A DNA stretch of 64,000 nt, from IMG/VR virus record IMGVR_UViG_3300034110_001237, positions 1-64,000 of that record; one strand, given 5' to 3'. This DNA is from a virus. Positions 3,373 to 58,679 of the stretch are shown piece by piece. Every line of letters begins with the position of its first letter. The stretch's first letter is position 1. The notes under the pieces were generated by a model, which was not told the DNA's origin, made no database searches, and worked only from the letters and a program-made list of their open reading frames with translations. A program made the position numbers and the translations under genes.

Positions 3373-4254
3373 ATGGATTCATCTGTAAAAAAAAATTTAT
3401 CTACAGTAGATATTCTGTCTACTGAAAATAAAAGTTATGTTGATATTTTTTTAAATCATTTGAAAACTCAATATGACTACGACAGCGTATCTCTTTATAC
3501 ATTTAAAGCACCCTTCGAAAATTACAATTTTAGTATTTTAACTGATGCCCTTAACTCAATTCTTTCTGTGCTTTTAAAAAATCCTACAAAAGAAGATATT
3601 GAACGACGTAAAGAATTTTTATTGAATTATTTTGATACTATTAATATTGTAAAACTTACTAGGTCTTATGAATTGGATGAAGAAAACTTATATTTAATTA
3701 TTTCAGTTCATTTCAATGAAGCAAATGAATTTATAATAAGTTTGCCAGAAAAATTTAATAATCTGAAAATTATTAACCATCATAATGTTATTAATGATCA
3801 AATGAAGAGTTATTATTTTGACGATTACATGTCTTATTTAAATTTCAAAATAGATGTTGTATCAAAATCATGTATTTTAGAGGAATCTTTAATTGTTAAA
3901 ATAAAGGTTGCCGATGAAACACCATTATTGAGTTATAGCTATGATTCTAGATCATCCATTCAAACTAACTATAATAGAAAAGCACAACTTACTATAAGTT
4001 TAATAAAAATAAATGATCTTGAACTATTAATAGGTTTAAAACTTAAATTAAACAAAATCACACTAAAACAATACTCAGGTCATATTAATATTAATAATTT
4101 CAATATTAACAAGGTTGTTGAAAGATTTATTTTTCCATTAAATGAAGGTATTGAGTTATTGAATAGTTGGAATATTAATCCTCAATTAACTTACGATTTT
4201 ATGAATGTTGATTACAGTAATTTCTGGGATATTAAAATGATGGTGCAAATATGA
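3373..4254 (+). CDS. MxxI-tail family protein, paralog group A
   Basis: HLKTQYDYD, RKAQ, FIFPLNE; ends KMMVQI. Confidence 0.8.
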   Translation: MDSSVKKNLSTVDILSTENKSYVDIFLNHLKTQYDYDSVSLYTFKAPFENYNFSILTDALNSILSVLLKNPTKEDIERRKEFLLNYFDTINIVKLTRSYELDEENLYLIISVHFNEANEFIISLPEKFNNLKIINHHNVINDQMKSYYFDDYMSYLNFKIDVVSKSCILEESLIVKIKVADETPLLSYSYDSRSSIQTNYNRKAQLTISLIKINDLELLIGLKLKLNKITLKQYSGHININNFNINKVVERFIFPLNEGIELLNSWNINPQLTYDFMNVDYSNFWDIKMMVQI

Positions 4255-4270
4255 AAAATAGGGAATTCAC

Positions 4271-5197
4271 ATGAAAGAAGGGCATGTATTTAGATCGTTT
4301 ACTGATACTGGTAACATCTATTCACACCAAGTATTACAGAACAAGACACTTGAGAACTTCCTTTCTCACTTGAAAACATCTCTTGATTATGAACAAGCAG
4401 CTATTTATATTTACGATAACATACAAAAAGATACTAACATAGAACTTATTAGGGATGCTATTCATTTTATATTGCATGCTCGTTTCAATATTGTCGATCC
4501 AGAACAATATAATGAATTTAAAGAACTTTTGTTTACTTATTCTGACATTATTCAAGTTGTGCAATTAACTCGTGTCTACAAACGTCATAAAGAGCATCAT
4601 TATTTATTTGTATGCAGTTATTTTGATGGAGAAGACCTAAATATCATTATCCCAGCACAGTTAAATTATTACTCTTTATTAAGGGTGCCATTAGTTAACA
4701 TTCCTTTTAGTAATTTAGGAAACTATCATGTTAGACCTAAGCCGACCTATGAAGATTGTAATCATTTTATTGAATTTAAAGAACGTAAAGTAAATGCTAA
4801 ACAAACAATATTTTTTTTTCAATCTGTCTGCGAAATAAATATGGAAGTGAGTGACTTTAGTCCTATTTTAAGTAATCGACTTAAAACAAAATATGCCCCA
4901 ATAAGTTATGATAGAAAAGCACAAGTCATTCTAATACTGTATCCAGATGATGCTGAGTTTCAACTCGACTATTTTCTTGATTTATCTCTAATCATTGGAC
5001 AACGGGTTATCAAAAATAATTTAATGACTCATAATAGTCAACTAGACTTGGAAAAAATTATTGATAAATTTATCTTTCCACTGAATGAATCTTATGATCT
5101 TATCTCGGAATGGAATTTAGATCCTGAGTTGACCGAAGAGTTTATGTCTAAAGATTACGAATCGTTCTGGCAATTAAAAGAAATGGTGCAAATATGA
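4271..5197 (+). CDS. MxxI-tail family protein, paralog group A
   Basis: HLKTSLDYE, RKAQ, FIFPLNE; ends KEMVQI. Confidence 0.8.
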   Translation: MKEGHVFRSFTDTGNIYSHQVLQNKTLENFLSHLKTSLDYEQAAIYIYDNIQKDTNIELIRDAIHFILHARFNIVDPEQYNEFKELLFTYSDIIQVVQLTRVYKRHKEHHYLFVCSYFDGEDLNIIIPAQLNYYSLLRVPLVNIPFSNLGNYHVRPKPTYEDCNHFIEFKERKVNAKQTIFFFQSVCEINMEVSDFSPILSNRLKTKYAPISYDRKAQVILILYPDDAEFQLDYFLDLSLIIGQRVIKNNLMTHNSQLDLEKIIDKFIFPLNESYDLISEWNLDPELTEEFMSKDYESFWQLKEMVQI

Positions 5198-6484: not shown

Positions 6485-7588
6485 ATGGAGTTGTTTCTAA
6501 TCGGCATTCCTTGTGCTTTCTTGCTTCCATTGATTTGCAAATTTATCTTTCCACATGACGTGACTGTGAAAGAATACCTGTTTGTTTCTTTTGTGAACGT
6601 GGTTTGTGTGACTATTTTCTATGCACTCATTAACCTTCATGCCACATGGGATACCGAAATTTGGAGCGGTCAGGTGACCAGCAAACAATCCGAACGTGTT
6701 TCGTGTGAGCACTCATACCAATGTAATTGCCGCCAGCAACGTTCAGGCACCGACAGTAAGGGTAATGCTACCTATACTACTGTATGTGATACCTGCTATG
6801 AGCATAGCTATGATGTGGATTGGCAAGTAGACAGTAACGTAGGTCGTGAACTGATTAATCGTGTTGACCGCCGTGGTCTTAAAGAACCACCACGTTTCAG
6901 CAAAGTTGAAGTGGGTGAACCTTTTGCAACAACCCGTAACTTCACCAACTACATTAAAGCAGCACCTGATACATTGTTTGTTGAAGCCGCTTCGATGAAA
7001 GATAAATATGTGGGCAGATTGCCAGAATACCCTGATATTTATGATTACTATCGTATCAACCGTGTTATCACGTTGGGTAAGGTTGGGGTTCCGGCGAATG
7101 ATTTAAACATCATGCTCAATGAGCAAATGCGTAAATGGGGGCCATTGAAACAAGGTAACGTGATTGCTGTGTTTGTTGATGATACTTATCAAGAAGACTT
7201 CTACCATGCTTTGCAGGCTCACTGGCTGGGTGGTAAAAAGAATGATATTATTGTGATTACGCAAGTTGATAGCACTGGTAAAGTGGGTTGGACACGTTTG
7301 TTCTCTCGGGCAGATACAGCAACTTTCGATAAATCAGTTGAATTTGATATTGTTGACATGAAACAGTTTGACAAAGTTAAATATGTTGAAATCTTGAACC
7401 AAAACATTGGTGAACGTTTTCACAGGATGGACTTCGAACAATTTAAATACTTGTTGGAAGAACTAAAACCCTCGACAACAGCGTTGATTGTTGGTATCTT
7501 CTTCGCTCTTATCATCAACGTGGGTTTGAACTTCTTGATTGTTAAACAAGATCTGTTTGGTGAAGGTTTCCGCAGACGTTTTCGCTAA
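6485..7588 (+). CDS. membrane protein with Cys/His-rich periplasmic segment (conserved phage-type membrane protein)
   Basis: two N-terminal TM, one C-terminal TM, CEHSYQCNC...CDTCYEH motif. Confidence 0.75.
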   Translation: MELFLIGIPCAFLLPLICKFIFPHDVTVKEYLFVSFVNVVCVTIFYALINLHATWDTEIWSGQVTSKQSERVSCEHSYQCNCRQQRSGTDSKGNATYTTVCDTCYEHSYDVDWQVDSNVGRELINRVDRRGLKEPPRFSKVEVGEPFATTRNFTNYIKAAPDTLFVEAASMKDKYVGRLPEYPDIYDYYRINRVITLGKVGVPANDLNIMLNEQMRKWGPLKQGNVIAVFVDDTYQEDFYHALQAHWLGGKKNDIIVITQVDSTGKVGWTRLFSRADTATFDKSVEFDIVDMKQFDKVKYVEILNQNIGERFHRMDFEQFKYLLEELKPSTTALIVGIFFALIINVGLNFLIVKQDLFGEGFRRRFR

Positions 7589-18481: not shown

Positions 18482-19003
18482 ATGAGCAATCAAACCAAGA
18501 AAACTCAGCAACAGCAACTTGCAAAAGCTATTCAAATTGCAGCCACTGCTCATGTGAATCATTTTGATAAAGGTGACAATGCCTATATCCTTCATCCACT
18601 TCGTGTCATGGAAGGTCTTGAAAGTAAAGATCCAGAAGTGATGCAAATTGCTATCTTGCATGACGTGATTGAAGACTGTCCAGAGTGGACTATCGAACGT
18701 CTTCGTAGTGAAGGTTTCTCGGAGCGTGTGTTGCTTGGTTTATCTTACATGAGTAAGACTGAAGAAGATTTGGCTGCTGGTGATGAAGGTTACTACAATT
18801 ACATTCGCCGTATGTTTGAAAACATTGATGCACTGTTGGTCAAAATGTCAGACATCCGTGATAACAGTCAGGTTACTCGTTTGAAAGGTCTTCGTGATAA
18901 AGACCAGAAGCGTATGGTGAAATATGCTCGTGCTTACAGCATGTTGGCTGAACGTCTTGAAGAAATTCGAGCGGCTTGTTACACTGGTGTTTCGAAAGTC
19001 TAA
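18482..19003 (+). CDS. HD-domain small alarmone hydrolase ((p)ppGpp hydrolase, SpoT/Mesh1-like)
   Basis: AH...DKG..YILHPLRV, AILHDVIED, VKMSDIRDN. Confidence 0.85.
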   Translation: MSNQTKKTQQQQLAKAIQIAATAHVNHFDKGDNAYILHPLRVMEGLESKDPEVMQIAILHDVIEDCPEWTIERLRSEGFSERVLLGLSYMSKTEEDLAAGDEGYYNYIRRMFENIDALLVKMSDIRDNSQVTRLKGLRDKDQKRMVKYARAYSMLAERLEEIRAACYTGVSKV

Positions 19004-23057: not shown

Positions 23058-24884
23058 ATGGATATATTATTAGCAGATAGATTGAGATCTTACTCATTAG
23101 GTCACAGCATATACAGTTTAGAAGCCTTTCATTCCGAAGTTTTTGCATTGGGTGGTTTTGAAGAGTTTTTTGAAAAAAACTATGGCAGTCAAAATCGTTT
23201 TCTTGATGATTTAAGTCATGGAATTGTAAGTCATCGTGTTAAAAAAATGCAATTATTTGAAGATTCTGTTAATGAGCCAGAAGGATTCAAAAAAGGTGAC
23301 GCAGTTCATGACATTAAAAAATTAAACTTGTTACAAATTTTCACACCGTTTGAAAAAAAGAAATTTAAAATAGGTACTGATATTATTTTTCATCAATGGT
23401 TGATGGAAGCTCAAAAGCACGGTGTGGATATCAGCGAAGAACATAATAGATTTATTGCTTTACAACATAAAGCGTTTGAATCCATTAAAAAAGTTGAACA
23501 ACACAAACGAATTTTTGATACTGCTGTTTTCAAAACGTCTAATATACAACAGTCTTTTGATTCAAAAGCTAATGATAATGGGAGAGTTACAGATCTTATT
23601 AAATATTACTCAGATAACTTAGGCTATTTAACAATAAATTCACTTTGCAATTTAGCCAGCACTGGTGGTTATGGATTACTTAATCTTAAAAATGAGTTCA
23701 ATGACATCACTATGTCCATTGTTCAAAAAATCCGTCAAGAACAGCCTTATGCTTATGGTTCTTTAGCAGAAACTTATTCTCAGTTTCTTAAAAATGGAAC
23801 TGGCCCATTAACGTCTTTCTTCGCTACTAAACTAGACAGTGCAATGGATCATAATTTGGAGTTGAGCAAGGCTCAGTCTATTAAAAGAGCATCACTCTTT
23901 GTTGATGGTAGTATTTTGTTTATAGATAAAAATGACCAACATATCATTCCAGAGAATAGCCATGAATTAAAAAAATATATTACTCAATTCAATTTGGATT
24001 TGATTGATTTTAAATTTAGAAAACAACCTACCTTTGGTAAAATATTTAAAAATAAATTTCTTGAGGATCAGGACAATATCAATATCACATTATCAACCGC
24101 TAATTCATTCTTGATTAATTATGATATCTTGAAACAAATTAAATTTGATAAAAACATTCTGGATAAGGACTTTGAATCGATTAACGACTACATTGAAAAC
24201 TCTGTTAAAACTTATAAAGTGTATAAATATGCAAATAGCATATTAAGCTCTAAAAACAAACATTTAATGACAGAGAGTGCTTATCCATTTTTTGAAAAAT
24301 TTTATGATGAAAAACTTAAAGATGATTTTATTCAAGAGTATATTGGTAAAAAGCTCTCCATGTTAACAACACCAGAAGAGTTTACGGCGTTTGTAAAAAA
24401 CGTTCATGATAAACTTTATGATTTTGGTAAGCATGCCACTATTGCGTTACTTGATTCTATTGATAAGAAGGCTCTTGAATTAAATGACAAAGAAGGCATT
24501 GTTCATATTGAAACCTTTGCAGAAAGTAGAAAACTAGGTACAAGCAACTGGTGTATTTCTCGTAACAGTAGTTATTTTGATGATTACGTCAAAAATGACA
24601 GAAGACAGTATTTCTTTTATGACTATACCAAAGAATCCAGTGACACCATGTCTATGATTGGTATTACAATAAGAGAAGATGGTTTAATCCATGCTGCTCA
24701 TAAAAAGAATGATGATTCTGTTAAATATCATAGTTCAATGGATGAATTGAGATTGAAAATTATTTGTTTGGATTACGATTTCTATAAAGACAACTTAGAT
24801 GAAACACTCAAAAAAGAAGTTGAAGCTGAGTTACAACAAAGAGAACGTAAGAAAACAAGAACACTTAAAAATAATAGTATCTAA
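23058..24884 (+). CDS. large protein with C-terminal PcfJ-like (GTxxWCI) domain and basic tail
   Basis: ESRKLGTSNWCISR...YFDDY...QYFFYD; ends RERKKTRTLKNNSI. Confidence 0.6.
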   Translation: MDILLADRLRSYSLGHSIYSLEAFHSEVFALGGFEEFFEKNYGSQNRFLDDLSHGIVSHRVKKMQLFEDSVNEPEGFKKGDAVHDIKKLNLLQIFTPFEKKKFKIGTDIIFHQWLMEAQKHGVDISEEHNRFIALQHKAFESIKKVEQHKRIFDTAVFKTSNIQQSFDSKANDNGRVTDLIKYYSDNLGYLTINSLCNLASTGGYGLLNLKNEFNDITMSIVQKIRQEQPYAYGSLAETYSQFLKNGTGPLTSFFATKLDSAMDHNLELSKAQSIKRASLFVDGSILFIDKNDQHIIPENSHELKKYITQFNLDLIDFKFRKQPTFGKIFKNKFLEDQDNINITLSTANSFLINYDILKQIKFDKNILDKDFESINDYIENSVKTYKVYKYANSILSSKNKHLMTESAYPFFEKFYDEKLKDDFIQEYIGKKLSMLTTPEEFTAFVKNVHDKLYDFGKHATIALLDSIDKKALELNDKEGIVHIETFAESRKLGTSNWCISRNSSYFDDYVKNDRRQYFFYDYTKESSDTMSMIGITIREDGLIHAAHKKNDDSVKYHSSMDELRLKIICLDYDFYKDNLDETLKKEVEAELQQRERKKTRTLKNNSI

Positions 24885-24895
24885 TTGAGGAAGAT

Positions 24896-26614
24896 ATGGA
24901 AATTAATGATTATTTAAAAATAGCCAATGAATATGCAGTTAAGCATAATAAAACTGATGATTTTATTGTAATAGGACTCTATAAACTCATGCAAGAAACT
25001 GATTTGAACCGTGTGTATGCTCACACGTTGTTAAGTCAGCATGGGGATAATTCATTTGGATTTACAACACCACAAAGCAACCCAGTCAGTAGTGGTGTTC
25101 AAACACTCACACGTATTGTGACTGACCCATCAGGAAAAACGGGGACAACTGTTTATTCAGTGGATAGAGACAACAACAGCAATGTTAGTGATATTTTTTT
25201 TGGCAGTGAACACGATCATGATTTGGTGAAAAGGTTTAATGATGACTTACAAAGTGTAGACAGTTTATTTGATTTAAAAGATGTGTATACCTTTGATGAA
25301 ATAAGTCGTATCAAACATTTAACAGCAGCTAATCTTTCTACTGGATTGGCATTAGAGTTGATTTCTCAAAATAATGAATCCTTTGAAACTGGTAAATATA
25401 ATACTATTCAACAATCCTATTTTAATCAAATTTCCTTAGCTGAAGAATTAAACTATGGTAAAAGTCAAAAATTTGATTTTTTCTCAAAAGATCCACTTTA
25501 TGAATTAATGCACTTAGATGTTGATCTACCACTTACACCAGAAGGTTTTTTTGAGCATTTAAATCCAACTGCACAAGCTAAGATTATTGAGATTTCAGGT
25601 TTTGGTCACATTACGTTTATTGAAGAAGTTTTTCAGGATTTGATTGACAGTAATTCACCGTTTATTACTGATTCCTTTGTAGGTTCTTTATTCACGTTAG
25701 ATTCACTTCGTGATGTAGTTCTTTCTTATTATGATTACAATGAATTAGATGATTTGAAATTTGAATTTAGCTTAATGACTGATAGATTCTTGTCCAACCC
25801 AACTATTGAACAACTTTTGGAAAGTGACGAGAAATTTGCTAATGTGGATGATATGCTGATGTATGTCTATGCCAAACACCCAGAATTGAATTATTCTATT
25901 CAGGATATTTCTATCATTACAGATAAAGAAATAGAAGATCGTAAGGAAGTGATAGAACATCAAGTAGATAAATTCCATATGTATGAATCAGTCAGAGAAA
26001 TTAGTGATCTTGGCCCCGATCAAAGTGCTAGAAAAACATTCTTGTCTAAATTTAAAATGTATGGTGAAGACATCTTAAAACGTGGTGATCACAGAATGCG
26101 TTTTATTTCTAGTAATCAATTTGCTGCAGATGCTGTATTATCGGCTAGCTATTATTTCGATGAATCTGTTCATAATGAAATATTGATTGATGCTGTTACC
26201 ATTAATCCACAATTATCTGATCAACATATTGCTGAGCTTTTTGACGCTGTTGTAGATTATGCACAAAAGAATAAAAGCATTTTGATGTTGACTTATGATA
26301 AGAAAACACCTTGGGGTGGTATCGATAAAGATCGTTTAATTAATATTGTGAATTCAGTGGTTGAGCAATCTTCTGATAAAGTTCCTTTCCTTTGTAACTT
26401 TGGTGCAGAAAAAGATAGACATCACTATGCATGTAATTACCTTGTAAACACAGACACGATGAAATATGAAGAATTGCCAAAATTGTTTGACCAATTGAAA
26501 ACGTTTATTGACAGTCACCCTGACCTTGATGATTTGCAACTAGAATTAAAAATGGACGAATTCATTGCCAAAGAACGCAATAAATTAAAAATAGATAACA
26601 AAGCAACGATTTGA
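24896..26614 (+). CDS. large acidic hypothetical protein with basic C-terminal tail
   Basis: 572 aa; GAGG RBS; ends KERNKLKIDNKATI. Confidence 0.75.
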   Translation: MEINDYLKIANEYAVKHNKTDDFIVIGLYKLMQETDLNRVYAHTLLSQHGDNSFGFTTPQSNPVSSGVQTLTRIVTDPSGKTGTTVYSVDRDNNSNVSDIFFGSEHDHDLVKRFNDDLQSVDSLFDLKDVYTFDEISRIKHLTAANLSTGLALELISQNNESFETGKYNTIQQSYFNQISLAEELNYGKSQKFDFFSKDPLYELMHLDVDLPLTPEGFFEHLNPTAQAKIIEISGFGHITFIEEVFQDLIDSNSPFITDSFVGSLFTLDSLRDVVLSYYDYNELDDLKFEFSLMTDRFLSNPTIEQLLESDEKFANVDDMLMYVYAKHPELNYSIQDISIITDKEIEDRKEVIEHQVDKFHMYESVREISDLGPDQSARKTFLSKFKMYGEDILKRGDHRMRFISSNQFAADAVLSASYYFDESVHNEILIDAVTINPQLSDQHIAELFDAVVDYAQKNKSILMLTYDKKTPWGGIDKDRLINIVNSVVEQSSDKVPFLCNFGAEKDRHHYACNYLVNTDTMKYEELPKLFDQLKTFIDSHPDLDDLQLELKMDEFIAKERNKLKIDNKATI

Positions 26615-28311: not shown

Positions 28312-28375
28312 ACATTGAGTTACCATCAGGTTTGTGCTATACTTGATGGTATATTTTTATAAAGGTTTCTTTCCC

Positions 28376-29584
28376 ATGTCATTATCCCTTATTGAACAAT
28401 TCGTCACTGTTGATCAGATTGAATCTGTTATTGATTCATTGCCTTTGAATAAAGTTAACCTTATTTCTGATAGCGGTGATGTTACGTTCAAAGATGACAA
28501 CATTGCTGGGTTTCGCCAACAAAATTTTAAAATCATGTTTAACACTTTGCAAGAAAGCCTAATCTTTATGTTTTCTAACTTCTCTTTGTCTGAGATTAAA
28601 AGCATTGAATCTATGATGCAATTTTATGTTCGGTTGTTTCCCTATGACTTAATGGTCGAAGCCAATAAAACACCAGAAACTGTTGTGACCATGTATCGAC
28701 GGGACGATTCATGCATTATCAACTTCAAGCTGTTTTCAATTGCTTATCGTTACAATAAATGGTTATTTCAAATCAATGATAAGTATAACAATGATATAAA
28801 GATGTATGACATGAGCTTTAAATCATTGCAAATGGCCATCATCACTGCCATTGATACTATGTTTCTGGATATTTTTAGAGATACATCACTTGTTATCAAT
28901 AATCAACTCGCTCTCACTGTTGCAAACAATCAAACCAATTTTGGTTTCAGCACTATGCGTTATAAACATCTGTTTACCTATGAAACTGATATGTCTTTTG
29001 CCATGCATATTAAAGACTATGATAATTTTCATGTGGTGACAGACAAAAATGTTAAGTCTCGGATTGTGCCAAGGGATGTCATGGTGGTGTCTGGCAACCA
29101 GCGAGTGGAACATAATATTTTGAATGTTGCTAAATTAACTGAAACGCATATTTCTATTCATAATGAATCTATCGAATTGATGGATAAATTATTCAGTGTT
29201 ACTTTTTCTCCTGTTGAATTAGAGTATTTAAAAAAGACCTTCGAAGTTATGCGACTTTCTGATTGTTGCTATCCACGTCAACCTGATACCGAAATACAGA
29301 TTATCAGAGCCAATACTGGAAAGAAAACTATTTTCAATCTAATTCGAGAAAAAATTCCTTTTCAATTTAGAACAGGACGACATAGTGTTTCCATTAGTTC
29401 ATCTATATCAATCGGATTCTATATTGAAGATGAATACCTTTCATGTCAAAAAATTAAGTCCTTTAAAGATGCCTATCATTTGTGCTACAATAAGTTCATT
29501 GAACATGTGAGTAAAACATTCGACATTCCACCAGAAGAAGTAACTGAACTTCATTTTAAAACACTAGAAATGTCTAGTTATTAG
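28376..29584 (+). CDS. MxxI-tail family protein
   Basis: ends FKTLEMSSY. Confidence 0.75.
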   Translation: MSLSLIEQFVTVDQIESVIDSLPLNKVNLISDSGDVTFKDDNIAGFRQQNFKIMFNTLQESLIFMFSNFSLSEIKSIESMMQFYVRLFPYDLMVEANKTPETVVTMYRRDDSCIINFKLFSIAYRYNKWLFQINDKYNNDIKMYDMSFKSLQMAIITAIDTMFLDIFRDTSLVINNQLALTVANNQTNFGFSTMRYKHLFTYETDMSFAMHIKDYDNFHVVTDKNVKSRIVPRDVMVVSGNQRVEHNILNVAKLTETHISIHNESIELMDKLFSVTFSPVELEYLKKTFEVMRLSDCCYPRQPDTEIQIIRANTGKKTIFNLIREKIPFQFRTGRHSVSISSSISIGFYIEDEYLSCQKIKSFKDAYHLCYNKFIEHVSKTFDIPPEEVTELHFKTLEMSSY

Positions 29585-35713: not shown

Positions 35714-37189
35714 ATGAATCGCTTTCATAAACTTCAAAATATAAAAGAAACGTTCGATGATAAACTATACCAGACAGATGACTTTAAAATCACAAAGGGG
35801 TTACTGTATAATTTTGGAGCTTACATTGAAGCAAATAAAGGTATTTTGTATGATTTGTTAGGTGCTTCTCTATTCAATATGGCTACTAATTCCATGCCGG
35901 TAAATAACGCTGTTACAACACCCGCTTTTAATAATCCTGTTGTCATTTCACAAATGAAAAACAAGCTTGACTCTAATTTGATTAATAGCCGTGGCATGGA
36001 TGTTTATTCTAAGATAGAAGAATTCAAAAAAAATTCACAATTAGGCAATACCATTCAAAATCATCGCTATGCTGGTCAAGTAATACACAAGTTAAATGCT
36101 GATTCAATTAAAGATTTGAAAAATGGAGCAGAAGGTTCTGTTAAAATTTTCGAGAACCCTTTCTGGAAAGGTAACGTGGTTGAGATAGAATCATCTAATT
36201 ATTACATGAATAAATTTGTATTTTCCAATTACTATCTGATTAATGACATCAAAGTTAATACTGACAACTCACTCTTGTTAACCGATAATAGTGAGCAAAA
36301 ATTATATTACAACCATCAAGATGTTAATGAATTTGCACGTTACAGTGACACAAAAAACATAGAATTGATGACTAAATATATCGTTTATCATGAAGCAGCA
36401 CATGGAGCTTTTAGACAAGCCTATACATTAGGACGTGATTCTAATGTGTTAAAAAATGAAGTTCATTCTGATATATCTTCATTGACCATGATAGGTGTTG
36501 AATCTAAAAGTTTAGCCGAATTCAATGAAGCCGTTGATATGATCATGCAAATGCGAGTTAAATCTTTGAAAGACGGTGATTATGGTCACAACGACTCTTA
36601 TGCCATCAGCGAACTGAAGAAAGTTATTAATGACAATCCTGATTTGTTAAAAATGAAAGTAGAAGACATTTCAGAGTTTTCTTATATTTTAACAGATACA
36701 TTGTTTAAAGAAAACGTTAAAAAAAATAATGCTGACTTACTTGAAAAAATGGGTATAAATCTTGATCAAAAAAGTATTTTCAATGATTTAAAAGCGTACA
36801 GAAATTTAGATCTGTATGATTCTGTTGGTGTTAAAATCACAAGTCAGTATATGTTTAAAACGTCAGAAATGATCAAAGAAGGAATGGACTCTAGAATAGA
36901 TAAATTTGCCGAAAGAATTGCAAAAACTCTTGACAATCAAATGCAATTTGATACAACAAGCACCTTAATGTTCAGAGAAAATGGTGGTAATGTGGCTAAA
37001 ACTACTCAGGCTATCCATGATAGGGTTGAAAAGAATCCAATCATCTCTAAAAGCGTTATTGATCCTATTAAACAAAAAGTTCATATAGATGGTTTAGAAT
37101 ATGACTTATCAAAGGTCAATGACATTCGATTGAATCAGATTGCAAAAGAGTCTCAAGCGTATGTCAATAAACACAACTACAAAATTTAA
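35714..37189 (+). CDS. putative zincin-like metallopeptidase
   Basis: YIVYHEAAHG with downstream NEVHSD third-ligand-like motif; ends VNKHNYKI. Confidence 0.6.
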   Translation: MNRFHKLQNIKETFDDKLYQTDDFKITKGLLYNFGAYIEANKGILYDLLGASLFNMATNSMPVNNAVTTPAFNNPVVISQMKNKLDSNLINSRGMDVYSKIEEFKKNSQLGNTIQNHRYAGQVIHKLNADSIKDLKNGAEGSVKIFENPFWKGNVVEIESSNYYMNKFVFSNYYLINDIKVNTDNSLLLTDNSEQKLYYNHQDVNEFARYSDTKNIELMTKYIVYHEAAHGAFRQAYTLGRDSNVLKNEVHSDISSLTMIGVESKSLAEFNEAVDMIMQMRVKSLKDGDYGHNDSYAISELKKVINDNPDLLKMKVEDISEFSYILTDTLFKENVKKNNADLLEKMGINLDQKSIFNDLKAYRNLDLYDSVGVKITSQYMFKTSEMIKEGMDSRIDKFAERIAKTLDNQMQFDTTSTLMFRENGGNVAKTTQAIHDRVEKNPIISKSVIDPIKQKVHIDGLEYDLSKVNDIRLNQIAKESQAYVNKHNYKI

Positions 37190-42458: not shown

Positions 42459-42535
42459 CTCTGCGTAGCTCAGTTGGATAGAGTGCCCGCTTCCGAAGCG
42501 GTCGGTCGTTGGTTCGAATCCAACCGTAGAGGCCA
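42459..42535 (+). tRNA. tRNA-Arg(CCG)
   Basis: acceptor CTCTGCG/CGTAGAG, D-arm GCTC-AGTTGGATA-GAGT (A20), anticodon loop TTCCGAA, T-arm GTTGG-TTCGAAT-CCAAC, G73, encoded CCA. Confidence 0.9.
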
Positions 42536-47100: not shown

Positions 47101-47180
47101 CATGATAAAATGTTCCATTTTAATGAATATTATGATATAATTTCGATATTAACCAATTGTTTTTTATTGAGGATTTATCA

Positions 47181-48116
47181 ATGAAAGTTATCCAGCATAA
47201 TACACATTTTAATCGCTCTCTGCCAAAAGATGGCATTTCCGATAACTTGGTTTCATTTTTAGAGATGATTAATCAACAATTTTCATTTGATCACGCCCAT
47301 CTCTATCATCTGACAAATGCAAATATCAGTGATTACAAAAGTGTTATCATTGAGGCTATTGGTAATCGTATTAAATTGCTTCGTGGTGTTGGGCCAAGAG
47401 ATAACCAAGATTCATTGGTTAAGGAAATTAATTCTGATTTTGATGAGATTATGGATGCAAATATTTTTCCAGTATCTTTGATTATTTTTGATTATGTCTA
47501 TGGTTCAACAGTAGAATCTTCAATGGTATTTTTTCATGAACATAATAACATGTTAATGATTAATACTAAATTTTCTACATTAGTTTTTGAAAATAAATAC
47601 TTTCATGCTCCAAATATTTCTTCATCTGATGGTCTTTATTATTCCCCTGCTGTAGAATCGCTTGCTTATGAAAGTTCTACCACAAAGGGAACTTTTCCTT
47701 TTGCATCATTTTTAATCCCTGTTAATATAGAAAAAAATCATTTTGAATCGCCATACAGAGAAATTCATCAGAAAAAAGCAGAATTTCAAGTAAGAGAGCT
47801 TGATGGTGGTCAAGATAAATTTCAACAAGTAACAATTCCACCTAATTTTGATATGAATAAATTTATGTTTCGATCTAATGGTCAGCCAAAGATTCTTAAT
47901 ACGAGACTTATCTATAACAATGAAGTTATTTTTAATGATTATGATATTATTGTTTGTGATCCACAAAAAATAGTTATGCAAAAGTTACTACCCTTTTTGA
48001 CTGACTTTAAATCACAATATGAGATTATTGATAGCATGCCTGTACAGGTTTCTTCCGAATATTATGAACATTTCAAAGCCAATATCTTGCCTGTTATTGA
48101 TATGGCTAAATGTTAA
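47181..48116 (+). CDS. MxxI-tail family protein (distant group A)
   Basis: FLEMINQQFSFD like group A N-motif; ends PVIDMAKC. Confidence 0.75.
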   Translation: MKVIQHNTHFNRSLPKDGISDNLVSFLEMINQQFSFDHAHLYHLTNANISDYKSVIIEAIGNRIKLLRGVGPRDNQDSLVKEINSDFDEIMDANIFPVSLIIFDYVYGSTVESSMVFFHEHNNMLMINTKFSTLVFENKYFHAPNISSSDGLYYSPAVESLAYESSTTKGTFPFASFLIPVNIEKNHFESPYREIHQKKAEFQVRELDGGQDKFQQVTIPPNFDMNKFMFRSNGQPKILNTRLIYNNEVIFNDYDIIVCDPQKIVMQKLLPFLTDFKSQYEIIDSMPVQVSSEYYEHFKANILPVIDMAKC

Positions 48117-48135
48117 TATTTTTTCAAAAAAAGTA

Positions 48136-48164
48136 TTGCCAAAGTGATCGAAATGTCGTATAAT
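48136..48164 (+). promoter_or_regulatory. sigma70-type promoter of the non-coding RNA unit
   Basis: TTGCCA-17 bp-TATAAT with A-tract upstream. Confidence 0.8.
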
Positions 48165-48187
48165 AGTCCCGTTGTTAAGCAATAAGG

Positions 48188-48509
48188 TAATCTTGGGAAG
48201 TTGGCTTAGAAGCAGCCATCTTATAATGAGTAGAGCGGTTGCCATAGGTGTTTGGGATTAAGTGATGGTAAGCATCGGGTTTAAATGATTTAGCGGTCAT
48301 TTAAAGGTATCGGTGACAAGTGAGCCACGGTTTGTCGAAATCGAATCCACATTAAAGTAGATTTTGCAGATCAAAACGCCTCAGCCAAAAGCTCCCAGTT
48401 CTTGCAATAATGTAAGAATTCGCCGTGGTTGTGGTCTTGGTCAAGTAAGGAGGCACCCCAGAAATGGTAAGGCTGAATTCTCTTTTGGCGTAATAGCACA
48501 CCATGATTA
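48188..48509 (+). ncRNA. large structured ncRNA containing a split 23S rRNA H43/H44 (uL11-binding) mimic
   Basis: GTTGGCTTAGAAGCAGCCATC (48200-48220) and GCGTAATAGC (48488-48497) match 23S rRNA ~1059-1100; closed by TAATCTTGG/CCATGATTA; many internal stems. Confidence 0.75.
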
Positions 48510-48530
48510 TGATTGTTTTTGCAACAAAAC

Positions 48531-48599
48531 CTGCCACTAAGGCTGACCTTGGCCCTCTAAAAGCTAAAGGGAACGGTTCGACTCCGTTGTGGTGGACCA
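48531..48599 (+). tRNA. atypical tRNA-like RNA with CUA anticodon and truncated D-arm
   Basis: acceptor CTGCCAC/GTGGTGG, A73, CCA; T-arm AACGG-TTCGACT-CCGTT; anticodon loop CTCTAAA; D-arm AGG-CTGA-CCT. Confidence 0.65.
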
Positions 48600-48609
48600 A
48601 CTTCTAAAT

Positions 48610-48646
48610 AATGCCAGCTCATAGTGATATGATGTTGGCATTTTAT
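48610..48646 (+). terminator. intrinsic terminator of the ncRNA unit
   Basis: AATGCCAGC...GTTGGCATT followed by T-rich tract. Confidence 0.6.
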
Positions 48647-48700
48647 TGTCTTTATTTTATTTTTATGATATACTTATCCAAATTTTTGGAGATCTGTTAA

Positions 48701-49357
48701 ATGCCTAATCCCGATAGAATTGCTCAGTTAACTGCAGTGGCTAATATGAGCCAGCTTGACAAAATTGAGCGGTTGACCACTACCATTAAAAAAGTCTACG
48801 GCATTGATGTGTCAGACGTAAAACTGGTTAAGAATCAAACCGCCCAGTACAAAGCGAAAACATCACTTGGTCCTGCTCGTATCTATGTTTATTCGCAGTG
48901 CATTGATATTAAATTCACATCGACTGTAGCATTTGATGGTCAACAACTCACTTTGAAAAAATCCACGGACGTGATTCAAACTATTTTTGATGACATCAAT
49001 AAACGAACGGTTATTTTTAATGTCGTCAAATTACGTCAACAAAATAATAAAGATGTCCATTTTTATGGTAATACCAAATTCAGTATTAAGATTGTGGTGC
49101 GATTTTCTGCGACTAATCCACAACTGTATTTTAAAGCGACACCTTATTCAACGTATTCTTTCTTTAACTACATGAATGAATGTGCCATGTCGGGTTATAA
49201 AAAGACGCTTGAAGTGTATTATTTGAAAGCTGAATTTGATTCCATAACAGGCGTTGAGCAAGCATTCTCTTTTATTAAAGATTACTTTAAAGGTCGGAAT
49301 CTCACGCTTGATGATGCGAAACGTTTAGCTGACTTGCAGGATATGGTAAAAATATGA
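48701..49357 (+). CDS. MxxI-tail family protein, group D
   Basis: GGAG RBS; ends DLQDMVKI. Confidence 0.8.
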   Translation: MPNPDRIAQLTAVANMSQLDKIERLTTTIKKVYGIDVSDVKLVKNQTAQYKAKTSLGPARIYVYSQCIDIKFTSTVAFDGQQLTLKKSTDVIQTIFDDINKRTVIFNVVKLRQQNNKDVHFYGNTKFSIKIVVRFSATNPQLYFKATPYSTYSFFNYMNECAMSGYKKTLEVYYLKAEFDSITGVEQAFSFIKDYFKGRNLTLDDAKRLADLQDMVKI

Positions 49358-57207: not shown

Positions 57208-57525
57208 ATGACTATTCAATATGTGATGACCCACAATGAATGGATTGCTCACACAGTCAGTTTGATTCCAGATGCTTGTGCAAAACATGACACAAAGGAC
57301 AGTATTGCTTTTGATTTAGCACTGGAATTTGGTATTTTGAGTGGTCTTGTGCCTAGTGGTTGGTATCCTGATGAAGCAGTTGGTCATCTGGTTGAGCGTG
57401 AAGAAGAAAAAGGAAATCTTGACGACAGTGACCTTGATGAATATGAAGCAAAGGTTGCTGTTTATCATGAAAAAATGAAAGCCAAATATGAAGCCGAAGC
57501 TGCGGCACAAAAAGGATCTGTATAA
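57208..57525 (+). CDS. hypothetical protein
   Basis: AAGGA RBS. Confidence 0.7.
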   Translation: MTIQYVMTHNEWIAHTVSLIPDACAKHDTKDSIAFDLALEFGILSGLVPSGWYPDEAVGHLVEREEEKGNLDDSDLDEYEAKVAVYHEKMKAKYEAEAAAQKGSV

Positions 57526-58679
57526 TGTCCCATCAAGCTAACAAACACGTTGTCGATATTGTTAATACATTGACTGCCTATCTTTTTTCAGATCGTTTTG
57601 ATCAAAGTTTGATTGAGAGTAAAGAACATCATATGCGTGCTCCGCGTGTTGAAATGACAATGGAGCTGATGAGGGCTATTATTGATAAGACTGCTACACC
57701 AGAGCAGTTTGAATTGATGGACCAGATCGCACGCCAAAGTTTGAATAAAATTAATAATGTTCATAACTCTCTTGTTTTTCATCTTGATGGTATTCGTTAT
57801 CAGGTTAAACAAGAATATGATCAATATACAGTCTACTCTAAATACAAAGCTCCTAACTTCTCCGGCTTACCCGATGAATTTAAAGAATCTGTAGTCGATG
57901 ATGTTGACGTTATTCATGAAAAATTTATTAAATTGACAAGCCTTTATCCTGCACAAGATTTCATGAAGTTTAAAAATAAAGACCGATACAGTAGCAATGA
58001 ATTTTCAGAATATTGCATTGTGCGTTTGAGCAGTGCATACCCTGTTGCTTATGCGTCGAAAGATTTATTTGAACTATGTGATCATTTTCCAGAAGCGTTC
58101 ACGGCTGAACAGCTCGCCTTCATTGAAATGAACCGAGTTGAAAGCTTTCAAACTATCGATAAATCTCAAAAATCGCTTGAAGTTATGTTTGCAGAATGGA
58201 AAAAACTGCTCAAGCGGAAAAAAGCTACACCTAATAAACAGTTTTCTTTCAATGACATGGACAACTATGCGTTCTTGAATGAGAATGAAACCCATCTGTT
58301 GATGTCTCAACGTAGTCAAAATACACTTTATGCATATGTTCTTGAAAAAGCTACGGGTCATTATAAAGTGTGGACAGCGGCCCATGAAGTGAATGCAGCT
58401 CCTGATGATTTCTATTATTCAGAAATGGTCGAAGACTGTGCTAATTACTTAGAAATGGTTCAATATTACATTGGGCGTGACTACGGCCCTAAAAGCTATC
58501 CAGTAATGATTTCCCATGATGGTTATATCAAATCGGCTCAATATCATTTGGAGAACTTCAATGATGATGATGGCTTGGTGTATGACTCGGTGCGTGGTTT
58601 TAATCTTCATTCACCTGATTGTGGTAACTTGTTAGGTGATTTTGACCTCTTATTGAGTGTTATTGACCATTATCGTTAA
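57525..58679 (+). CDS. hypothetical protein
   Basis: 384-aa ORF translationally coupled (TAATG). Confidence 0.75.
   Translation: MSHQANKHVVDIVNTLTAYLFSDRFDQSLIESKEHHMRAPRVEMTMELMRAIIDKTATPEQFELMDQIARQSLNKINNVHNSLVFHLDGIRYQVKQEYDQYTVYSKYKAPNFSGLPDEFKESVVDDVDVIHEKFIKLTSLYPAQDFMKFKNKDRYSSNEFSEYCIVRLSSAYPVAYASKDLFELCDHFPEAFTAEQLAFIEMNRVESFQTIDKSQKSLEVMFAEWKKLLKRKKATPNKQFSFNDMDNYAFLNENETHLLMSQRSQNTLYAYVLEKATGHYKVWTAAHEVNAAPDDFYYSEMVEDCANYLEMVQYYIGRDYGPKSYPVMISHDGYIKSAQYHLENFNDDDGLVYDSVRGFNLHSPDCGNLLGDFDLLLSVIDHYR

Follow-up and report, generated by a model that had tools for sequence, protein, structure and literature searches.

We analysed a 64,000-nucleotide (nt) stretch of viral DNA, i.e. positions 1 to 64,000 of the IMG/VR record IMGVR_UViG_3300034110_001237 (hereafter the window, to which all coordinates refer). 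The element under study, encoded by a large uncultured phage, is a promoter-driven non-coding RNA at 48171–48530, the ends of which rebuild the three-way junction of helices H42, H43 and H44 of 23S ribosomal RNA (rRNA; Escherichia coli positions 1051–1108), i.e. the GTPase-associated centre or 58-nt uL11/thiostrepton domain. This mimic RNA and the rest of its transcription unit, which runs on through a transfer RNA (tRNA)-like element to a terminator-like hairpin, comprise the following features (23S positions in E. coli numbering):

48136–48164, + strand: sigma-70-type promoter, TTGCCA and TATAAT separated by 17 nt (11/12 consensus matches)
48172–48187, + strand: 5' leader, predicted by folding to pair with 48510–48525, which would lengthen the closing helix (close relatives are uninformative here)
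48188–48196, + strand: 5' strand of the closing stem (TAATCTTGG), equivalent to H42 and pairing with 48501–48509 (double compensatory changes in all 8 helix pairs)
48197–48231, + strand: copy of 23S 1056–1090, i.e. H43, the A1067 loop and the junction with A1082–U1086 (local match to the Rfam large-subunit (LSU) rRNA model, match to our covariance model R1, per-position conservation)
48232–48487, + strand: 256-nt insertion between 1090 and 1091, with a covarying base stem AGAG (48232–48235)/CUCU (48480–48483), then a linker UUUG
48280–48308, + strand: 9-base-pair hairpin TTTAAATGA/TCATTTAAA in the insertion (compensatory changes in relative L241, wobbles in relative L140)
48323–48330, + strand: hairpin-loop segment AGCCACGG, candidate half of a pseudoknot with 48423–48430 (8 possible pairs)
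48443–48479, + strand: subfamily module of AAGUR, GGCAC, a hairpin CCN-GNRA-NGG and then UAAGGCUGAA (exact pattern in 15 viral contigs)
48488–48500, + strand: copy of 23S 1091–1103, i.e. H44 with the A1095 loop (R1 match, per-position conservation)
48501–48509, + strand: 3' strand of the closing stem (CCATGATTA; same covariation test)
48531–48599, + strand: 69-nt tRNA-like element, co-transcribed with the mimic (fold; acceptor-stem change in L241)
48610–48646, + strand: terminator-like hairpin AATGCCA...TGGCATT with a T-run (sequence and fold; conserved in L140 and L241)

An initial annotation, made from the sequence without database searches, had described an independently transcribed, GC-richer segment bracketed by a promoter and a terminator. 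Every string that it quoted is found where it was placed, and both flanking signals are conserved in relatives: L140 keeps both promoter hexamers with a diverged spacer, and the terminator is kept in L140 and L241, while a simple terminator scan did not list the hairpin at 48610–48646. Transcription probably starts near 48171. The RNA has a GC content of 41.7%, compared with 33.5% for the window. The unit extends beyond the mimic first described, into the tRNA-like element; this element, and the placement of the family in phage tRNA arrays, had been missed. If RNase P cuts at 48531, the mimic RNA so released would measure about 355–360 nt.

Copy of the GTPase-associated centre

The mimic RNA represents a promoter-driven, structured and conserved phage family that reproduces the GTPase-associated centre, including its tertiary contacts. 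In the window, 48200–48220 reads GTTGGCTTAGAAGCAGCCATC and 48488–48501 reads GCGTAATAGCACAC. The E. coli 1051–1108 sequence with which these segments were initially compared is identical to that of rrlH. The initial annotation also considered the AAAGAAA junction to be replaced, and this has to be corrected. The window retains 1082–1090 as AUAAUGAGU, with a compensated (swapped) A1082–U1086 pair, and the Rfam LSU alignment gives the bacterial consensus GAguGCGUAAuAGCUCAC (relevant stretch GAguGCG), which locates the 256-nt insertion between U1090 and G1091. The junction is therefore kept.

The likeness is recovered by models in both directions. The covariance model R1, built from 13 short members of the family, gives 87 matches (68 distinct, 95–378 nt long) and scores the window at 89.9 bits (E 1.8e-25). 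Applied with filters off to E. coli rrlH, R1 yields a single significant match at 23S 1049–1135 (39.5 bits, E 2e-12; next match E 0.04). Reciprocally, the Rfam LSU_rRNA_bacteria model matches 51 nt of the window locally (48194–48244 to model positions 1094–1147, E 4.7e-4), a match that surfaced only in a narrow search and lies below the gathering score (17.8 bits, cut-off 50). The same model matches the minimal member L027 at the same site.

Covariation was counted over the 68 distinct sequences, in an alignment fitted to the model. Standard pairs fill 94.7% of cells, compared with 73.4% after shuffling and 39–52% with the partners slid. Compensatory double changes occur in 19/24 pairs, among them 8/8 in the closing stem, for which the initial annotation had set covariation as a test, and 4/4 in the stem at the base of the insertion. 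Tertiary contacts covary as well: at the 1072·(1092–1099) base triple, 35 sequences have C/C-G and 17 have U/U-A, against four exceptions (Fisher p 2e-12 for 1072 versus 1092, not corrected for phylogeny), and the lone pair 1082–1086 is U-A in 58 sequences and A-U in two, one of which is the window. The contacts U1060/U1078/A1088 and G1071/G1091/C1100 are 95–100% conserved. In the real centre, the contacts 1082–1086, 1072/1092/1099 and 1071/1091/1100 have been described (PMC2952862).

Per-position conservation is uneven. G1059, U1060, G1071, A1077, U1083, G1087, G1091, A1098 and C1100 are invariant in the family; A1067 is conserved at 94% and A1095 at 90%, and G1093, U1094, A1095 and A1098 all lie at 90–100%. 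The pair 1058–1080, in contrast to these, occurs in all four Watson–Crick forms, and positions 1061, 1096 and 1097 vary freely. Thermodynamic folding alone pairs H43 with the insertion, i.e. it misfolds the mimic, and such folds were therefore not used for the core.

The family thus has the three-way junction with its conserved loops as well as the tertiary contacts that define the 23S centre. The likeness covers the H43 and H44 loops with A1067 and A1095, the 1082–1086 closing pair, U1060/U1078/A1088, G1071/G1091/C1100, the covarying 1072/(1092–1099) triple, and even the free variation at 1061 and at the 1058–1080 pair. Unlike the centre in its 2.9-kb rRNA, the mimic (i) is free-standing, with a length of about 100–380 nt; (ii) always has 1090 and 1091 separated by an additional helix or domain, and A in place of U at 1101; (iii) has a plain helix of variable sequence in place of H42; and (iv) is phage-encoded in tRNA arrays. 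The large family, the helix and tertiary covariation and the reciprocal model matches strongly support the initial proposal that the centre is mimicked by an RNA transcribed on its own.

Distribution, insertion and genomic setting of the family

The family is mostly phage-borne. In a blastn search of cultured phages, Aeromonas phage 4_4572 matched in both conserved halves, and Pseudomonas phages Astolliot and UNO-G1W1 matched in the 3' half, in each case directly 5' of a tRNA and intergenic, save for a short opposite-strand hypothetical open reading frame (ORF) in UNO-G1W1. A short query added Milchi, pf16, XacN1, GAP32 and Pd_22F, so that the cultured carriers are phages of Pseudomonas (pf16, Astolliot, Milchi and UNO-G1W1), Aeromonas (4_4572), Xanthomonas (XacN1), Cronobacter (GAP32) and Paenibacillus (Pd_22F). 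Exact-pattern scans of IMG/VR returned 8, 15 and 71 contigs; the 71 are viral contigs matching the strict pattern, and 37 of them measure at least 90 kb (largest 437 kb). Among 185,579 species genomes, a strict 5' pattern gave 55 matches, and only five were long mimic-type elements, all on contigs of metagenome-assembled genomes (L296, L278, L286, L271 and L298; 4–204 kb). Either prophages or phage sequence that was binned along with that of the host may account for them. Most of the pattern matches in the species genomes are true rRNAs, and the remaining R1-matched sequences are true 23S centres (40–54 bits).

Several side observations concern individual loci. True archaeal 23S sequences of Hadarchaeota and Thermococci (L265 5772–5886, − strand; L289 2150–2264, + strand; L272), with H44 GGGUAACACC instead of GCGUAACAGC, had matched the pattern by chance and were rejected as mimics; they represent natural variation of this fold. 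In some phage contigs, two or three copies lie close together (L013 at 2702–2902, 3889–3941 and 4762–5063; L079 at 4455–4622 and 4651–4806; also L016, L017 and L076), and some of these copies are partial or split by very long insertions. Short hypothetical-protein coding sequences are annotated over the RNA in UNO-G1W1 (L003 2451–2558) and Milchi (hit H21) and are likely mis-annotations. In XacN1 (AP018399.1, 149186–150583) the mimic lies ∼300 nt from a homologue of the window ORF 6485–7588 (phrog_2087, function not known); this adjacency is probably a coincidence, because that ORF lies 41 kb from the RNA in the window.

The insertion is present in every member and ranges from a plain hairpin of ∼25 nt to ∼330 nt. 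It is the plain hairpin, without sequence conservation, in the minimal members L027, L029 and L043. In the window, where a length of about 250 nt was first estimated, its relatives are L140 (97% identical), L241 (about 93%) and, more distantly, L033. Two pattern scans for relatives of this insertion returned mostly chance matches, with L140 and L241 as the only real ones. The stems originally drawn in the insertion all exist. The hairpin at 48280–48308 is backed by two compensatory changes in L241 (U-A to C-G and G-C to A-U), with G-U wobbles in L140, and the others are invariant among close relatives. The pseudoknot suggested earlier is a plausible candidate. Segment 48323–48330 can form 8 pairs with CCGTGGTT at 48423–48430, and in L001 and L033 a hairpin loop is likewise complementary to the equivalent 3' segment; the register is ambiguous because GUGG is present twice. 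Conserved modules are shared within subfamilies (e.g. GGCACCCC-GNRA-GGUAAGGCUGAA). In the module at 48443–48479, a GGC/GCU helix and the hairpin-closing pair covary, with one compensatory change of GGC/GCU in L241. Judged by eye, a copy of the sarcin–ricin loop or of an RNase P segment was considered for this module and rejected, as the tetraloop is not conserved as GAGA, and the module gave no second match in 23S (with R1) or in Rfam.

Many members of the family are set among tRNA genes. A tRNA gene lies within 5 kb of 44/63 distinct elements and within 60 nt of 22/63, and all tRNAs within 5 kb (304/304) are on the strand of the element; for the other 19/63, the 5 kb of sequence fetched around them contains no tRNA. 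The adjoining tRNA species vary without pattern. We found no conserved neighbouring protein, the biggest cluster covering 4 of about 63 loci.

In the window, the mimic is followed by the tRNA-like element, which has a 7-base-pair acceptor stem (CTGCCAC/GTGGTGG) with G3-U70, A73, an encoded CCA, a canonical T arm and a reduced D region. The acceptor stem shows a compensatory A-U to G-C change in L241, and L140 has G for A73. Its middle arm has two competing folds, i.e. a CUA (amber) anticodon on a weak stem or a 5-nt loop without anticodon. ARAGORN at default settings made no call for the element, and Rfam gave no tRNA or transfer-messenger RNA (tmRNA) match even at E up to 10. A 93-nt tRNA-Leu called by ARAGORN at relaxed thresholds is implausible and was discarded. 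The one tRNA gene found in the window is a tRNA-Arg (42459–42532 by Rfam, 42459–42535 by ARAGORN).

The record as a whole is 161.7 kb long, with an estimated completeness of 50%. Of ten large window ORFs searched against Pfam and PHROGs, nine gave no matches. At E 0.001, eight large ORFs (752–2416, 23058–24884, 24896–26614, 28334–29584, 35714–37189, 57525–58679, 47157–48116 and 48701–49357) match nothing in either library; these libraries represent this phage lineage very poorly. A tblastn search with one window ORF points to phages of Proteobacteria, a vague indication only. We searched the record for uL11, bL12 and RelA-type synthetase genes and found none. The initial annotation had linked the RNA to an alarmone hydrolase gene at 18482. 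ORF 18482–19003 (+ strand, 173 amino acids) does encode an HD-domain phosphohydrolase (phrog_990, E 4e-47; Pfam HD_4 at 23 bits, under the cut-off of 27.2) and could be a small alarmone hydrolase. The gene lies 30 kb from the RNA and no linking evidence was found, so the connection is weak.

Relation to known RNA classes

Rfam at gathering score gave no match in the element and no rRNA in the whole 64-kb window, in line with the initial statement that no other rRNA surrounds the mimic; in particular, there is no full-length (∼2.9 kb) LSU rRNA. At E up to 10 across 47900–48900, nothing was found in 48171–48530, including GOLLD, ROOL, group I/II introns, tmRNA and RNase P, and ARAGORN reported no tmRNA. 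A full-length match to a known family, the outcome that the initial annotation said would remove the novelty, was thus not obtained. Rfam 15 has no family for the mimic RNA, our literature search found no paper describing it, and no free-standing RNA copying one of the functional centres of the ribosome is known to us. From these comparisons of sequence and structure, the mimic appears to be a new kind of RNA.

Three known groups resemble it in part. The leaders of ribosomal protein (r-protein) operons (L10, L1, S8 and S15) also copy, off the ribosome, the rRNA site of an r-protein. They are cis-acting messenger RNA leaders in cellular feedback control, whereas the mimic would be a stable, trans-acting RNA with no r-protein gene downstream. 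Instead of the 5' untranslated region of an r-protein operon, we find the RNA followed by the tRNA-like element and terminator in the window, and by tRNAs elsewhere. Rfam shows no r-protein leader match in the element, and we know of no uL11 leader of the rRNA-mimic kind. GOLLD and ROOL are ornate non-coding RNAs of unknown function, often found beside phage tRNA genes. The element shares with them its ornate structure and its place near phage tRNAs but does not match their Rfam models, and they are not known as copies of rRNA domains. Finally, RNA decoys and mimics are known from phage–host conflict, e.g. pseudo-ToxI of phage PhiTE (PMC3475682) and the tRNA-like Y RNAs (PMC4201824). The principle would be that of these and of 6S RNA, i.e. 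an RNA imitating a cellular nucleic-acid ligand so as to capture its partner, but none of them imitates a functional centre of the ribosome as the mimic does.

Putative function and alternatives

Our favoured reading is that tRNA-processing enzymes excise the mimic, which then acts as a decoy by binding uL11, or further ligands of the centre, away from the ribosome; we give this a probability of roughly 55%. RNase P would free the mimic by cutting where the following tRNA or tRNA-like element begins, and the mimic would then accumulate like a tRNA. The released RNA should bind the ligands of the real centre because it retains the shape and the presented nucleotides of that centre. Foremost among the candidate ligands is host uL11, the 58-nt site of which is reproduced, but the mimic may also hold factors or enzymes recognising the loops of A1067 and A1095. 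It would thus act as a decoy or sponge. How the phage might benefit is speculative: a weaker uL11-dependent stress signal (RelA), or ribosomes shielded from effectors aimed at the centre.

Three features of the family bear on the identity of the partner. First, the lack of a conserved protein neighbour, together with the absence of uL11, bL12 and RelA genes from the record, makes a universal host component the likely partner. Second, A1067 and A1095 are known for factor and thiostrepton contacts rather than for a role in folding; their conservation suggests that more than uL11 binding is under selection. Third, the sequence of the closing stem is variable, which makes it improbable that the mimic also copies the uL10 stalk site. 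More tentatively, at odds that we put somewhat short of even, phages of many host phyla may use replica RNAs, processed from tRNA transcripts, to form an off-ribosome uL11 particle that disarms the readers of the site, i.e. RelA-type signalling or an immune or competitor enzyme.

Several points weigh against the decoy reading. The extra helix at 1090/1091 and A1101 (not U) occur in every member and could alter binding. Ribosomal uL11 exchanges slowly, so that titrating free uL11 may matter little in a short infection. Binding of uL11 is predicted from likeness to the ribosomal site. In addition, the shuffle and Fisher statistics are uncorrected for shared ancestry, and the alignment used for counting, being fitted to the model, favours structure.

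The best surviving alternative, which we nevertheless consider unlikely, is that the mimic is a substrate decoy in a phage–host arms race. It would absorb an enzyme of the host or of a competitor that attacks the centre, such as a Tre23-like ADP-ribosyltransferase, a nuclease or a methyltransferase, and uL11 binding would be incidental. An enzyme aimed at the centre does exist, as the toxin Tre23 ADP-ribosylates H44 around 1095–1098 (PMC8661411). The retention of G1093, U1094, A1095 and A1098 at 90–100%, and of A1067 at 94%, would fit such a role, as would the position of the mimic in tRNA arrays and the very different hosts infected by its carriers. There would also be a parallel with the view of phage tRNA arrays as a means of replacing or shielding tRNAs that host nucleases attack. 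However, Tre23 is an interbacterial toxin, and we know of no anti-phage defence system targeting the GTPase-associated centre. Moreover, 1096 and 1097 vary freely, and no anti-defence genes are linked to the RNA.

It is quite improbable that the fold of the centre is only a structural chassis, i.e. a compact and very stable platform displaying an insertion that carries the real function. All members have an insertion at the same site, from the 25-nt hairpin to ∼330 nt, and subfamilies share conserved modules in it. Yet the minimal members L027, L029 and L043 have a plain, non-conserved hairpin, which leaves the mimic itself as the sole universally conserved part, and A1067 and A1095 are conserved although they are not known to be needed for folding.

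A tRNA-related role is slightly less probable still. In this case, the free mimic would bind to the elbows of tRNAs, a contact that the real centre makes in the A/T state, and would help to fold, process or shield phage tRNAs. The tight tRNA linkage, the strict co-orientation and the tethering to a tRNA-like element in the window agree with this. By contrast, the 19/63 elements without a nearby tRNA and the patternless choice of adjoining tRNA species argue against it, and on the ribosome the elbow contact is weak and dependent on the whole A site. Scarcely credible, finally, is a relic or cis element (a functionless captured rRNA fragment, a piece of an rRNA gene, an intron or a regulatory leader), which the local LSU rRNA similarity might suggest but which is contradicted by the strong compensatory evolution, the element's own promoter and terminator, the absence of other rRNA in the window, the tRNAs rather than a conserved ORF that follow it, and the lack of an intron or other Rfam match.

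The decoy reading that we favour is directly testable, since several cultured phages carry the RNA. The elements lie in unannotated stretches or are occasionally called hypothetical proteins, and a family model would improve the annotation of phage genomes. For a textbook RNA fold, the family also amounts to a mutational experiment done by nature, with dozens of swaps of a buried base triple. If our reading is true, RNA mimicry would take in a functional centre of the ribosome in addition to tRNA and promoter DNA, and a decoy particle of this kind would have no known precedent among viruses as a decoy copy of such a centre. If the mimic binds uL11 or enzymes directed at the centre, it would reveal that phages control translation and stress signalling of the host at a level not seen before.
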